Assembly: GCA_013239625.1 (NCBI GenBank)
Contig: MU053588.1
Location: 3,252,799-3,316,798 of the forward strand
Source of the DNA: Lama guanicoe
Taxonomy: Eukaryota
DNA: 64,000 nt
Reading direction: 5' to 3'
Part shown: positions 2,995-60,637 of the stretch, in pieces
Layout: every line of letters begins with the position of its first letter
Numbering within the stretch: position 1 is the stretch's first letter
The notes under the pieces: model-generated
What the model saw: only the letters and a program-made list of their open reading frames with translations
Told to the model about the DNA's origin: nothing
Databases searched by the model: none
Position numbers and translations under genes: made by a program

Positions 2995-3915
2995 TCTATT
3001 TTTTTTATTTTTTGTTTTTTAATTTTTAATTTTTAATTGAAGTATAGTTGATTTACAATGTTGTGTTAGTTTCTGGTGTACAGAAAAGTATTTGTATATA
3101 TAAAATTCATTTTTACATTCTTTTCCATTATAGTTTGTTACAACATATTGAGTATAGTTCCCTGTGCTTTACAGTAGGACCCTGTTGTTTATCTGTTCTG
3201 TACGTAGTAGTTTGTATCTGCCAATCCCAAACTCCTAATTTATCCCTCCACCTGCCTCTCCCCACTGGTAACCATGTTTGTTTTCTATGTCTGTGAGTCT
3301 GTTTCTGTTTTGTAAATAAGTTCATTTGTGTCATTTTAAAATTTTTTTATTTATGAAAAAATCTTAATTATTATTTTTAAAGGAGGTATTGGGGATTGAA
3401 CCCAGGACCTCATGCATGCTAAGTATGTGCTCTGTCACTGAGCTATACCCACCCCTCGTGTCATTTTTTTAGATTCCATGTGTAAGTAATACCATATAAT
3501 GTTTGTATTTCTCTGTCTGACTTACTTCACTTAGTATGATAATGTCTAGGTCCAACCATGTTGCTGCAAATGGCATTATTTCATTCTCTTTTATGGCTGA
3601 ATAATAGTCCATTATGTGTGGGTGTGTGTTTATATATACCCCACATTTTCTTTATCCATTTGTCTGTTGATGGGCATTTAGGTTGCTTCCATGTCTTGGC
3701 TATTGTAAACAGTGCTGCTGTGAACATTGGGGTGCGTGTATGTTTTTGAATTAGACTTTTCTCCAGATATATGCCCAGGAGTGGGATTGTTGGATCATAT
3801 GGCAACTCTACTTTTAGTTTTTTCATTTAAGTAAACCTCCGTACTATTTTCCATAGTGGCGGTACCAATTTACATTCCCAGAAACAATATAAGAGGTTTC
3901 CCTTTTCTCCACACC
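2995..3915 (-). mobile_element. 5'-truncated L1
   Basis: ORF 3581..3826(-) ELPYDPTIPLLGIY...PMFTAALFTIAKTWKQPKCPS is the L1 ORF2 C-terminus; poly-T near 3000. Confidence 0.92.
3338..3457 (-). mobile_element. Vic-1-like SINE nested in L1
   Basis: tRNA-like A/B boxes; TSD GTGTCATTTT at 3328 and 3458. Confidence 0.88.
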
Positions 3916-8290: not shown

Positions 8291-9886
8291 ATTGCTGGAC
8301 CACACTGCTCCCAGAGGGTTACAATATCCATGGGGGAGCTTCACTGTCCGTAGGCAAGGTTACATAATTCCCCAGGGGTTGATGTTTCCCCAGAGGCCTT
8401 GGTTTCCCTGTGGAAGAGGCCGGAGACTTCTGAGGCACTGGGTGAGGGACAGCTCTAACACAGCTAGGAACCCAGCAACGGGAGCTAGCCTTGAAGCCCT
8501 AAGAACTCAGAGCCTGACCCTTCAGGCCTTCCCTCTCAGTGACCAGTTCCTCTCACCTTATCTACTCTGTCTTAGGCTCTTGGAGCATCACCTGCAGCAC
8601 TCCCCCTCCACCTTCCCACCCCGGCCCCGCCCCATTCCTCTTCTTTGGTACCTCAGTCTTATTTGAGACTGTTTCCAGGCTTAGCCTGTGGATATAGCTT
8701 CTGTTTGCCCTCTACCCCGCTGTTGCTGGCTCCTACTGGCCATCTGATCATTGCTGATTTCCTGTTTCCCGAATTCTCAGGCTCCATCCATTCCTCGCAG
8801 CTGTAGAGAACAGACTTAACACTGCCCTACGCGCTGGCCTTCATCCTTAAGCCCTGCCTTCCTCTCTCCTGGCAACCCCCCAGTGCCCCTTGGGAGCACA
8901 TTTGTTCAGACTTTGGTCACCCCCACGCATCCTGACTCCACCTCCGGAACCCCCTGCCCTGGAGGTGGAGGTGGGGGTACCTCCGGAGGCGCCACCGTGT
9001 CCCTAGGACAGCTGCAATCTGGGGATGGGGGTGCTCCCGAGTGCATTCTCTCTGGTCACTTCCTCCCCAGCTGGGATTGGGGCTATATGAAAGGACAAGA
9101 CCCCATCCCAGGAGGAGCGGAGGGCACAGCCGCCTCCCCATTTCCGATACTGGGAAATGCTTCCCACTCATTCCACCCCACCCCTGGACAGCTGCCCCCA
9201 TTCAGGCTCAGGGTTGGGGGTACCAGGTAAGGCCAGGCTGGGAAATGTGGTCTTGATCATCCTCCAAGGTCTTGACCTGGCCCCTCAGCAGAAAAGATTC
9301 CGCCTCCTCCCAAAAGGTCCATACGTCCTCCTTAGAAATGTTTCTGACACTCATCAGAAGGTACCCCCCCCCAAATCCTTTTACAGGCTTCCAAAGAAAG
9401 TCTGGACTCCCGCAATGGGCGGGAGAGGAGGAGGGGCGGCACGTCGCGGGTCCTGAGGACTTAAGTTATCCGCAGATTTGCAGCCTCAGAGAAGGGTCAT
9501 GACCCCTAGGACCCCATCCCACCTCTGCCCCCTCCTTCCTCCGCCCCCTACTCCCCACCCCGTCGCGTGGCCCCTTTAAGCCTAGAGCCGGCCAGTCCTC
9601 AGTGGCTGAGAGCCGGCGAGTGTGTGTGTGTGAGTGTGCGGGGAGGGGGCGGGCGCAGTGTCTCCATGGCGACGCGGCGGTGACGTCGCCGGCCGGGGGG
9701 CGTGGGCGTCCCGGCCCCGGAGTGCGATATTAACCCGGGAGGCGGCGGCGGGGAGGGGAGAGGCTCTGAGAGGCGAGGCCGGGTGAATCGGCGAGGGCGG
9801 CCCGACGGGCGCGGGACGGGACGGGGCAGCGCGGGCGCCGGGAGCTGCGGCCCGGAGTCGGGGCGCCTCGCCCGGGGCCCCCCAGC

Positions 9887-16336
<6,450 letters not shown>

Positions 16337-17185: not shown

Positions 17186-19689
17186 ACTTTGGACCTTTGG
17201 ATGCAGTGACCTGTCCTGGGTGCTGGTTGCAGCCACCACAGGGCCACAGCCTTTGCTTGGTTCTTAAGGACAGGGGCCTGGACTGGACCCCACCCCCCCA
17301 ACCGTGGATCTATTGCCAGAGGGCCTAACCCCATCTAAATGGGTTAAATCTAGGCCTGGGAAATGAATTCCTGACTTTGGGGGGCACTTAACTCCCCATT
17401 CCTGGTGATGAAGGTCCTAGGCATACTCTGGCCCTCTTGACTGCTCTCATCTTAAATGGGGGATCAGCTCATCCTTGGATGCACTTAGGACTAAAACACC
17501 ACAGCATTGCCCTTGCTCTTCGGCCTTAAAATGCCTTTCCTCTCTGAATTCCTATCCATACCTCCAGGCTGTGGTGGAGGACTGGAGTTCCTTTGCATTA
17601 CCTCTAGCGTCCTCCCACACATCACTCTCCTTAAGGGCCCTTCTGAGTTAATCTGGGAGCCTTTTGGCAACAGGCCTGCAATACCTCTTGAATGTAGAAC
17701 CTTGCAAAGTACCTTAGTGATCTTCTATCAAACCATGGGAACACACTCCACCAGCAAGGTGGGGGCAAGTGGCTGACTTACATGACTTGCCCAAGGCCTT
17801 AGGTCCAGCCAGGACTATAAATGAGGTCTGTCTATGAAGCCTATGTTCTTCCAACAACTAAGTTTTCCTAAAGCCAGGATGATTGGATCAAGACCAGGAC
17901 CTCAAGGTCATAGGATCCAAAAGGTGAGGCCATAGATCTAGAAGCCCAAGTTAGAGAACTTGAATCAGAGATGAAAGAATAAGGAGGAGGAATCCAAGCT
18001 GGAGGTGCCCTTAGAGACAGCACGATCCCTTTGGTGCAGGTGAGGTGCCTGAGGCCCAGAGAGGGGAAGGGGATTCCCCAAGGCCACACAGCTGCTAAGA
18101 GATGGAGTGGGAACTGAGGGCTCAGGGCCTGTTGGACTGGCTTCACTGAAACTCACCCTGAGGGGGAAGGAACTGGCAACTCCTACTCACTCACTTCATC
18201 CTCATTTCATGCTGCCCAGGGTGGGTGGTCCCAAATGATGCCTGTTGGCAGTGAAGAGAGGATCCAGGGCTGGGGTACTGGCAGAAAACAGGCTCCGGTG
18301 GCAGCCTGCGGGCAACTGCTCCCTCTCCTGGGTGATGTAAGTCACTCCCTGGGGTGGGGGCCACTGGGCTATTTCTGGAAGTTGGGATGAGGCATGTCTC
18401 CTGGCAACACAGATGCAGCTGAGTTGGTGGTGGTGGTGTGATGGAGAAAGCCGGATGTCATCACTTCGTGAAGGAGGGAAGACCCTGATTAGTAGTCTCA
18501 GCCCCTGATTCTAGAGCCTTCAAAGCACCTCTAAGCCAGGTCAAATATGGATTCAAAAGTGCTCAGCTCCAGAACTGCTTTCAGGTCAGACCACAGCCCA
18601 GCCAGACTTACTGCGGCAAATTCTGGCTAAGTAGATGTCACAGATGGCATTTGGTCTTGAAAACTCCAGCGGCTTCTCTAATCTTTAATGACCCATCCAA
18701 ATCTATTCAGTATTTGCAAGACCATACCCTTGCTCTTTCCCACATCCTCTGGGGATCTCTGATTCCAAGTAGAAAGTCCAAATCTCATGACACTTCAGTT
18801 AATGCATCCCATCGGAGACCCTCTTCATACCTATAACCCCTAGCATCCCTACAGACTCCCAAAGCTCCTTCCTGACGCTTTTCAAGCATCCCTCACCTCT
18901 TCAGGTCCCTCAGAGATCCCCTCAGTCACCAGTAGTTTCTCGGTCTCCCACAGACCTTTTATAGGCACCCCAAGTCTTCTCTGACTTCACTGGTTCCCAG
19001 TAAGACCACTTCATCTAGTCATGGACTCCCCTGAGCACCCACTTACAACCCGCTCTAACACCCCTCAACGACGTTCTCAGCTCGTATAGGCATTCAGGTA
19101 ACTTTCCCTCAGACTGACGCCTCAGACTCCCACGGACCCCAATCCCCTCTGGCGGTTGCCCACGCGCAGCCCCCTGCGCATGTCCCACGGGTTCTGGCCG
19201 TTAAATAACTGCCGCAGTCCGACCCTGCTCGCCAGCCCTTGTAGGTCTTCTTGGTCCAGTTTAGGATTCCCCAGGCTTTGGGGCTTGATTCAGATTTTTG
19301 CTTTTGGACTCCGAGCCGCCGTCAGGGGGCAGCGGGCACTGTTTGGCTGAGAAGTTACTACAACTCCCAGAAGCACCCGCTCTAGGCTGTGCGTGATACA
19401 GCCTCATTCATTGAGAATGGAAGTGTGCCTGCGCTGTGCCTTCTGGTTAATGTAGTTCGAGAAGGCTTTAGCGCTACTGTCAGCCCGGCTCCATGGAGTC
19501 TGTGTAGGCTGGGAATTGCGGTCAGCTACAGACCGAGTGGCCCAGACTTTTTTCAGGCTTCAGAAAGGGCAGAACAGTGAGTGTGATCACAGGGTCTGAT
19601 TAAAGTGAAGTCTAGAGACTCCATTTCCCATCATTCCACAAAGTAGGAGGAGCTGCGAGCGATTTCATTCCAGTTCCAAGTATTTCCGG

Positions 19690-19737
19690 AACGGACGGAC
19701 GGACGGACGGACACGCACGCACGCACGCGCGCGCACG
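19690..19737. repeat. Compound microsatellite (GGAC)n-(GCAC)n-(GC)n
   Basis: acggacggacggacggacggacacgcacgcacgcacgcgcgcgcacg. Confidence 0.9.
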
Positions 19738-21153
19738 AACTCTGTTTCCCAGCGCGCTTTGAGGCTCCCGTCCTTCCGGGTATTAATCGGTAAATGGGGA
19801 GACATAATGCGTGCACAAAAACCTGAGGCTACTTCTAGCAGCCGGCTTTCTTTTTGGCCTTCCAGGATCCTGTAGTTTAGAAAGCGTAAGAACGTAAAAG
19901 CCTTCCAGGATCCTGAATAGGGGTTCAAGACAGTCCTGAGAAACCGCCGGAAACTTTGTTTCCCAAATCGTTTGCGGGGTTTTTTCTCCTGGATTTGTGG
20001 ACACTTGGAGCTTAGAGTGTTTGGACTCCATTTTCCAGCAGCCCCTGATCGACTTCGGCTCTTTTCTTGGGACCTGGGGGCGGGACAAGAAGCACTGAAA
20101 CATTCTTCAGTCTCCCCTAGGCGACTACCGTCTTTCACCTTTCGCTCACACTCTCCCGAAGGTACCCATTAGACTACACTTCCCGGCAAGCCTCTGCAGC
20201 CTCCTCTCACAAAGGGTCAGGATCCGGTCTGGACTAGTCCCCAGCATGCTTCAGGATCCTTAGTAGACCCCTCTCCCTCAGTCAGTGGGAAGGCTGCCTT
20301 GAACTCCATTTCCCAGAAGACAAAAGGGCTTGCTGTAATATCTGCTCTGAGGCCTTGGTGCTGACTACATTTCCCAGTAAGAACTACAGCCTAGCGTACA
20401 ACGGAGGGGGACTGCTATACCTACTCCATTTCCTAGCCTATCTCCGGAACTGCGGTATCCACTTGGGGCTTAGGAAATCACATAGGACTCCATTTCCCGG
20501 CGTGCTTTGGGAGTCGCTTTACACCTGCAATGCGGTGAGGGCGTGGCGGCGACTCCATTTCCCGGCTTGCCTCACGGCCCGATATCTGCGGGTCTATCAG
20601 TGTGGACTCAATTTCCCAGAGTGCACCTGGCGCCGGTCGGCATACAACCAGTAGCCTAAGTGAGAGACTGGACTCCGTGTCCCAGAATGCGTCAGGCCTA
20701 CACTGCTCATTGATGGAGTGGCTGAGAGTTTATTTCTGAGGTACACCGAGGAACGACCGGTTGCCGCAACAGAGTGAGTGTGAGACTGTAACTCTGCTTC
20801 CTAAAGTGCTTCAGAGTCCGTGGTCTGCACAGTCGGCCAACTTACTCCCAGTACTCTATTTCCCGACGTGCAGCGCGACCTAGCATCCTGTCTACTCTGA
20901 GGTATTTGCGGACTCCATTTCCCGGCGTGCCAAGCGGCTCTCTGAGAGGGCAGAGAGCGGCTACGGCGGCACGAAGGGAAGGCGGACTGCATCTCCCAGC
21001 GTGCCTCGCGGCGGGCGCTGGGCCGGAGCCGGAGCCCGAGCGGCGCGGCCTGGAAGAGGCCGGAGCCCGGGGGAGGCGGCGGCAGCGGCGGCGGCAGCGG
21101 CGGGGGCAGCCTGGGCAGCCCGAGCCCCGCGGCCTGGGCCTGCGCTCGGCGCC

Positions 21154-29955
<8,802 letters not shown>

Positions 29956-60496: not shown

Positions 60497-60637
60497 GGGA
60501 GGGAGGGTATAGCTCAGTGGTAGAGGTGGTGCTTAGCATGCACGAGGTTCTAGGTTCAATCCCCAGTCCCTCCATTAAAGAAATAAATAAGTAAATAAAC
60601 AAACCTAACTGCCTCCCTCCCAAAACAAACAAAAAAG
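60497..60637 (+). mobile_element. Vic-1-like SINE
   Basis: GGGAGGGTATAGCTCAGTGGTAGAG...GGTTCAATCCCCAG, AAAT tail, CCTAATATT flanking both sides. Confidence 0.9.

Follow-up and report, generated by a model that had tools for sequence, protein, structure and literature searches.

In this study, we describe an array of binding elements upstream of GSK3A in a 64-kb stretch of the Lama guanicoe genome (contig MU053588.1; the whole stretch is referred to below as the window), and from its letters this array is very probably the orthologue of the multi-site Ronin (THAP11)/ZNF143/HCF-1 platform published for the mouse Gsk3a promoter. Each unit of the array is, as judged by motif matching, the composite element known from earlier work as SBS2 or RBM. 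It has been reported that the mouse Gsk3a promoter carries an array with 11 Ronin/THAP11 motifs and forms a multivalent hub contacting 15 promoters (Dejosez 2023, Cell Rep, PMC10329844). Both the array and its multivalent reading are already in print for the mouse orthologue, and the idea of a multivalent platform, which an earlier note on this DNA had raised from the letters alone, is what that paper published. Our additions are modest: they are the periodicity of the array, its lack of helical phase, the uniform orientation of the copies, the erased spacers, the preservation of CpG and an apparent copy-by-copy orthology, and we did not find them in print. The main text of Dejosez (2023) makes no mention of a 62-bp period, a lack of helical phase or erased spacers (the words 'spacing' and 'tandem' each occur 0 times), and beyond that paper no other description of the array was found among Creative Commons-licensed PubMed Central papers and bioRxiv.

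The identity of the motif rests on matches to consensus strings taken from published papers, against which 17 copies were scored, the frameshifted relic at 20233 being left out. According to Trung (2016), which gives the consensus of M4 (ACTAYRNNNCCCR) and of the Staf/ZNF143 site (SBS; YWCCCRNMATSCMYYRCR) together with a two-half model, THAP11/HCF-1 depends on the upstream core RRACTAYR, and Ikaros and p50 bind to the downstream half. The mean match of the 17 copies was 8.8/10 to M4 and 13.5/17 to SBS, the latter compared with a background of 6.7 (standard deviation 2.0). Moreover, the 3' half of SBS (MATSCMYYRCR), which was unused in finding the copies, matched in register at 7.8/11 vs a background of 4.5 (standard deviation 1.6). 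Matches so far over background bear out the proposal of the earlier note that the motif is a composite THAP11/ZNF143 element. In 13 of 18 copies, the upstream core is followed, at a fixed offset of three bases, by CCC and then A or G; this is not so at 20025 (TCC), at 20423 and 20791 (both CCT) or in the relics 20233 and 20727. The copies are rich in information from -1 to +19 (GACTCCATTTCCCRGCGTGC), after which the content falls towards background, with a weaker but significant tail to +31 that was reached by 3/2000 controls. The earlier note had also remarked that most copies depart from the canonical form, and this is indeed the case: core position 4 is C in 12 of the 18 copies, A in 4, T in 1 and G in 1, so that the usual miss of M4, in the upstream core ACTAYR that forms the THAP11/HCF-1 half, is a C for A at this position.

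The abundance of the element in this promoter is far beyond chance. In a test on the interval 19300-21010 with a 12-nt core and 1000 dinucleotide shuffles, 10 matches with at most one mismatch were found on the + strand and 0 on the - strand, compared with a mean of 0.009 in the shuffles, none of which reached 10 (0/1000). When up to two mismatches were allowed, the counts were 14 on the + strand and 0 on the - strand vs 0.10 in the shuffles (0/1000). Over the whole 64 kb, all 10 core matches at one mismatch or fewer fall in 19618-20912. A weight matrix built from 11 strong copies likewise gave 14 + strand sites of at least 19 bits, all of them in 19618-20986, and three of these (19618, 19739 and 20025) are independent of the construction of the matrix. 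No site of at least 19 bits was found outside the array on either strand of the 64 kb, the best being one of 17.2 bits at 9251 (-). With 14 such sites in 1.4 kb, the promoter shows the many RBMs per promoter that characterise a Ronin hub.

Each of the 14 positions listed in the earlier note was found to be the base preceding an ACTNNA...TCCC core, and 11 of them are strong copies (at most two mismatches to ACTCCATTTCCC), 1 is moderate and 2 are decayed. The moderate copy at 20790 has 4 mismatches to ACTCCATTTCCC and scores 13.2 bits on the array weight matrix, and the relics at 20232 and 20726 match M4 at 5/10 and 6/10, respectively, with scores below 8 bits. The count of 14 sites thus stands for the interval to which it referred, but not for the array as a whole, which is larger and starts ~800 bp further upstream: additional + strand copies are present at 19357, 19618, 19739 and 20025, and inverted relics at 19456 and 19522.

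The comparison with mouse is central to our interpretation. In Table S1B of Dejosez (2023, PMC10329844), the mouse peak chr7:26019677-26026870 is assigned to the genes 'Erf,Gsk3a' with a score of 3100, 11 RBMs and 15 interactions, and Ronin puncta are reported at the mouse Gsk3a locus in the same paper. The text of its Fig S4A gives ten 15-mers, together with a lower-case sequence of 14 nt, and most of these are of the GACTCCATTTCCCRG kind; five of the ten 15-mers have C at core position 4, three have T and two have A (PMC10329844). Read by eye from proximal to distal, seven copy-specific variants share their order in the mouse list, as far as that figure text shows it, and in the array described here. 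These are ATCTCCC at 20986, CTCTA at 20853, ACTCRA at 20606 and CCTA at 20423, followed in the distal part by ACTACATTT at 20364, AACT at 20303 and ACTACA without TTT at 20173. As the variant order is the same in the two species, the array is probably old and orthologous to that of mouse, and the synteny of ERF and GSK3A, together with these by-eye colinear variants, is what would be expected of an orthologue of the mouse Gsk3a hub. If the colinearity holds, the copies would be orthologous one to one and the array would predate the split of the two lineages, which may be a deep one.

Several points weigh against taking the array for a Ronin/ZNF143/HCF-1 platform. The role of ZNF143 in looping is disputed in recent work. 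The colinearity of the copies was read by eye and post hoc, and it assumes that the mouse figure lists its motifs in positional order. Strict M4 is matched by only 3 of the 18 copies, which are the only 3 such sites in the window and all lie within the array. The mouse ChIA-PET peak spans ~7.2 kb and cannot resolve the number of bound copies (PMC10329844), and its score of 3100 is common to two unrelated mouse peaks in the table and is probably a ceiling value. Expression changes in the direction opposite to simple activation: Gsk3a counts are 3337, 3269 and 3598 in controls and 4874, 4782 and 4762 in the Ronin knockout (log2 0.48; PMC10329844, Table S3A), and human GSK3A is named among the 'up genes' after ZNF143 depletion (Dong 2024, bioRxiv 10.1101/2024.05.13.594008). 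The latter work places ZNF143 on the human GSK3A promoter and explains the rise of GSK3A by competition with stronger activators at overlapping sites (Dong 2024). A simple activating role in setting GSK3A dosage, which would be one reading of the suggestion made in the earlier note, is therefore not supported, given that mouse Gsk3a mRNA goes up ~1.4-fold in the Ronin knockout and human GSK3A goes up after ZNF143 depletion.

The scarcity of strict M4 copies and the prevalence of C at core position 4, with A in only 4 copies, also favour a different explanation, namely that the ACTCCA-type copies are read mainly by a factor other than THAP11, such as ZNF143 or ZNF76 alone, or Ikaros or NF-kB p50 on the TCCCRRNR half, and that there is no THAP11/HCF-1 platform. 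The requirement of RRACTAYR for THAP11/HCF-1 and the binding of Ikaros and p50 to the downstream half, as described by Trung (2016), point the same way. However, the mouse array with the same non-A variants still gives a top-score Ronin peak as well as Ronin puncta (PMC10329844), and the SBS half is well kept in the present copies, so that at least ZNF143, a partner in the same complex, would be expected to bind. On balance we find this explanation unlikely.

With regard to geometry, the start-to-start distances within the main block agree with the spacing given in the earlier note: they are 60, 70, 61, 59, 64, 65, 54, 66, 55, 64, 62, 59 and 74 bp, with a mean of 62.5 and a standard deviation of 5.6. 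The coefficient of variation is 0.089 vs a random mean of 0.62, none of 100000 random placements was as even (0/100000), and the best period of the main block is 61.8 bp (R = 0.93). The spacers were described in the earlier note as unrelated to each other. This is correct as far as pairwise similarity is concerned, which is at control level (local-alignment mean of 10.86 for 13 spacers vs 10.8-11.7 in six control sets of real neighbouring DNA), but a faint in-register similarity persists upstream of the copies, where the mean column information over 40 nt is 0.212 vs 0.141 (2/2000 jittered controls). This upstream similarity may be all that remains of the ancestral unit, or it may be a second weak site. 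By eye, a loose purine-rich TGAG(R)G-like element lies ~10-17 nt before many cores (20130-20986). Tandem Repeats Finder detected no repeat within the array, and thus no unit-to-unit similarity over the whole unit; a BLAST search of the array against its own genome returned the self match only, and the spacers are therefore single-copy.

The whole upstream region also stands out in its CpG content. The CpG observed/expected ratio is 0.55-0.94 at a GC content of 0.53-0.60 in 19300-21010, compared with 0.21 in 17400-19299, and such preservation would suggest that the entire 1.7 kb has long been free of methylation in the germ line. As a separate observation, 52-55% of the words sampled from 19300-21500 occur in each of four RNA-seq runs, although exon 1 and the likely 5' untranslated region make up only ~1/5 of this region; this may mean transcription across the array or DNA carry-over.

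The earlier note supposed an old tandem amplification, and the single orientation, the erased spacers and the 61.8-bp period (R = 0.93) are all consistent with one. A ~62-bp period and a single orientation are equally what one expects of any former tandem repeat, and the array could in principle be a decayed minisatellite with no collective function, of which only the 1-3 copies nearest to the transcription start site work as an ordinary ZNF143/THAP11 element while the rest are neutral. The decay of the units at 20232 and 20726, the weakness of that at 20790 and the irregular, microsatellite-interrupted distal part (19357-20025) are in keeping with this. There is, furthermore, a young 30-bp minisatellite of the same motif elsewhere in the genome, with 9 units each carrying a ACTACATTTCCCAG-type motif on the - strand (G000:C6178:12943842-12944091; 2356-2597), and it may represent such an array at an early stage. 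Yet similarity has been lost from the spacers and 14 copies still score at least 19 bits; therefore selection on the motif in most units is needed. The apparent colinearity of copy-specific variants with the mouse array, by eye and on the published figure text, and the retention of CpG over the whole 1.7 kb speak in the same direction, and we regard a neutral relic as improbable, slightly more so than reading by another factor.

The assembly of the species itself (2.05 Gb) was searched for similar arrays, as the earlier note had suggested, and a second array with unique spacers was found at the promoter of a PPP1R12-family gene. Across the 2.05 Gb, pairs of perfect cores at a distance of 35-65 nt are confined to two places, the GSK3A and the PPP1R12-family promoters. 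A triple ATTTCCC pattern was found at 93 places vs 7 in the control; almost all of the 93 are genuine satellites, and the only unique-spacer arrays among them are again those at the same two promoters. The PPP1R12-family array comprises 11 copies within 1.3 kb, all on one strand and facing the gene (G000:C3322:2276480-2279558; sites 247-1568, ATG 1747), and the distances among its five proximal copies are ~44, 63, 70 and 67 bp, the last three measured by eye. The best structure match of the gene is MYPT1 (E = 4.5e-8), and from its N-terminal sequence we take it to be PPP1R12C. In Dejosez (2023, PMC10329844), mouse Ppp1r12c is listed as a top-score Ronin peak with 5 RBMs and 11 interactions. 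The PPP1R12-family array is therefore like that of GSK3A in its same-strand copies facing the gene, its unique spacers and a mouse orthologue that is also a multi-RBM Ronin anchor, and unlike it in its irregular spacing (17-328 bp) and its larger share of canonical ACTACA copies.

Direct pairs of canonical motifs were found at no fewer than 4, 17, 4, 3 and 1 places (at least, in each case) at start-to-start distances of 14-38, 39-69, 70-100, 101-131 and 132-162 nt, respectively, vs 0 in every distance bin for the reversed-pattern control; these counts are lower bounds, the first four bins include the minisatellite, and the first bin includes one duplicated locus. The excess at 39-69 nt, counted without a control for the position of the transcription start site, could reflect a spacing rule or else promoter-proximal clustering combined with steric exclusion. 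Genome-wide, no preference for the direct orientation was seen, with 17 direct places vs 8 convergent and 11 divergent loci at the same gap, and the uniform orientation at GSK3A is therefore more readily accounted for if a single unit was amplified than if the copies were gained independently. The contig of the window carries two further direct motif pairs, at a distance of 0.7-0.8 Mb (G000:C1236:4097946-4098015 and 4008313-4008410). Among 49 loci on metagenome contigs with the two-copy pattern, 0 align to 19000-21600 of the window (blastn, E 1e-5). The metagenome loci richest in copies have 30-46% G+C and may be repeats of other organisms.

We propose that a ~62-bp unit with one composite M4+SBS element would have been amplified in tandem long ago. 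Selection would have kept the ~21-27-nt binding element in most units as the spacers drifted to randomness, and small indels would have blurred the period to 54-74 bp, for which a few bases per spacer would be enough by an estimate from general mammalian indel rates. ZNF143 may dock on the TTCCCRG...TGC part and THAP11 with HCF-1 on the ACTNNA part, with either or both bound at a given site. Some ~15 usable sites in 1.4 kb, all facing the transcription start site, would provide a very high valency, and this valency may keep the 1.7-kb upstream region open and unmethylated. The footprint of ZNF143 is 27-29 bp and the sites are 54-74 bp apart; therefore all sites could be occupied together, and no nucleosome would fit between occupied neighbouring sites. 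The promoter may act as a hub contacting many neighbouring housekeeping promoters, as in mouse, and the bound factors may damp GSK3A output slightly instead of activating it. Binding, contacts and the change in expression have been published for mouse and human; that the same holds in this species, with many copies occupied at once and with any part played by the spacing, is inferred. A more specific form of this proposal is speculative and, in our opinion, rather doubtful: copy number and a phase-free spacing of ~62 bp might themselves have been selected, as a valency ruler that seeds THAP11/HCF-1/ZNF143 assembly for neighbouring promoters or for buffering of the factor pool and that damps GSK3A, with the ACTCCA form kept for cooperative, dose-sensitive binding and the 39-69-bp pair excess reflecting the same rule.

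The window is mammalian, and the order on the + strand is ERF, array and GSK3A. The ETS exon of ERF (14119-14445) has PDB 7jsa, ERF, as its best structure match (E = 3.4e-41), and the last coding exon is 15017-16336. The ATG of GSK3A is at 21154, and a later kinase exon matches the structures of GSK3 alpha and beta (E = 2e-34); the glycine-rich N-terminus is one that we take to be specific to the alpha form. GSK3A is followed by a C2H2 zinc-finger gene on the - strand and a death-effector-domain gene, presumably ZNF526 and DEDD2. ERF and GSK3A share a strand, the GSK3A ATG follows the ERF stop codon at a distance of ~4.8 kb, and all sites face downstream, an arrangement that would also suit a barrier, in which tightly bound proteins in a row would block read-through from ERF or insulate the tandem genes from each other. 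No direct evidence for such a barrier was found, and the PPP1R12-family array and the published hub data need no barrier idea; we consider it quite improbable. A rotationally phased platform was put forward in the earlier note on the basis of a mean spacing of 62.5 bp, close to six turns. In such a platform the sites would lie on one face of the helix, for a straight protein filament or for nucleosome exclusion by phase. This reading is refuted to all practical purposes by the 5.6-bp standard deviation of the spacing, a Rayleigh R of 0.09 at 10.5 bp (p ~0.89) and computed site angles that spread over 0-325 degrees, all round the helix. The best helical period in the 10.0-11.0 range has p ~0.04, uncorrected for the seven periods tried.

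Coordinates of the array, its individual copies and the adjoining genes in the window (scores are those of the array weight matrix)
Feature	Position	Strand	Remark
Whole array, composite M4/SBS element: 18 + strand copies/relics, 2 inverted relics	19355..21004	+	ends 150 nt before GSK3A ATG
Main periodic block, the interval of the earlier note, 14 sites, period ~62 bp	20171..21004	+	
Distal copy, canonical ACTACA, strict M4 match	19355..19375	+	
Inverted relic copy	19438..19458	-	15.8 bits
Inverted relic copy, SBS-like core	19504..19524	-	14.4 bits
Copy, perfect 12-nt core, outside the interval of the earlier note	19616..19636	+	21.7 bits
Copy directly after (ACGG)n/(CACG)n microsatellites	19737..19757	+	19.5 bits
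Copy	20023..20043	+	20.4 bits
Copy, canonical ACTACA	20171..20191	+	22.7 bits
Decayed relic, apparently one base lost within core	20231..20251	+	
Copy	20301..20321	+	24.3 bits
Copy, canonical ACTACA	20362..20382	+	22.2 bits
Copy, CCT instead of CCC	20421..20441	+	20.3 bits
Copy	20485..20505	+	31.0 bits
Copy, SBS match 16/17	20550..20570	+	27.9 bits
Copy	20604..20624	+	28.5 bits
Copy	20670..20690	+	24.7 bits
Decayed relic, M4 match 6/10, SBS 9/17	20725..20745	+	
Moderate copy	20789..20809	+	13.2 bits
Copy	20851..20871	+	24.8 bits
Copy	20910..20930	+	31.0 bits
Proximal copy, core start 168 nt before ATG	20984..21004	+	26.1 bits
ERF (upstream neighbour)	14119..16336	+	ETS-domain exon and last coding exon
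GSK3A exon 1 coding part, glycine-rich N-terminus	21154..21436	+	inside CpG island, GC 0.81

In the distal part of the array, the stretch 19691-19737, directly before the copy at 19739, is taken up by microsatellites, (ACGG)n and (CACG)n, and a short direct repeat, GCCTTCCAGGATCCTG, is present between array copies as two copies 44 bp apart (19857-19916), one of which, read on the - strand, resembles a decayed inverted ACTACA element. The stop-to-stop frames 20238-20654 (+) and 19665-20168 (-), which run across the array, were rejected as coding, having no Pfam match. Elsewhere in the window, a lone good copy of the motif (9231-9251, - strand, 17.2 bits) lies upstream of the GC-rich region that is taken as the 5' end of ERF, and this region contains a 37-N assembly gap at 10792-10828. 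Searches of the window with Rfam and ARAGORN gave only two tRNA-Ala(AGC)-like elements, at 3380-3453 (-) and 60502-60574 (+), probably the heads of short interspersed nuclear elements; neither is inside the array. The same two programs found no snRNA-type gene in the window that would be able to explain Staf sites, and no 7SL-derived element was found in the 64 kb, a hint that the species is neither a rodent nor a primate.

GSK3A is a dosage-sensitive kinase, and its promoter showcases how THAP11 may gather housekeeping promoters by means of many sites. A large, unidirectional and periodic array that is apparently orthologous copy by copy between distant mammals would suggest that the high number of sites has been selected and is no oddity of mouse. 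Its geometry also constrains models of how such a hub could work: the sites follow one another at ~62 bp, they share no helical phase, and a nucleosome would not have enough room between two occupied sites.

Homotypic clusters of weak transcription-factor sites are usually irregular and of mixed orientation. The GSK3A array is like them in having many sub-consensus sites for one factor in one region, and it differs from them in being periodic and unidirectional. It shares with the composite M4/SBS2 element, ACTAYRNNNCCCR fused to YWCCCRNMATSCMYYRCR, the two halves, their offset and a promoter-proximal position. That element is usually present as one copy per promoter, most M4 genes carrying one in the account of Trung (2016), in agreement with what the earlier note had stated; here there are many copies, mostly with C for A at position 4. 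The closest likeness is to the mouse Gsk3a Ronin hub, with which the array has in common the Erf-Gsk3a locus, the type of motif including the ACTCCA and ACTCTA variants, the presence of many copies and their apparent order. It is unlike the mouse hub in its count, which is 11 in mouse and, by different criteria, 14 strong + strand copies plus 4 weaker copies or relics here.

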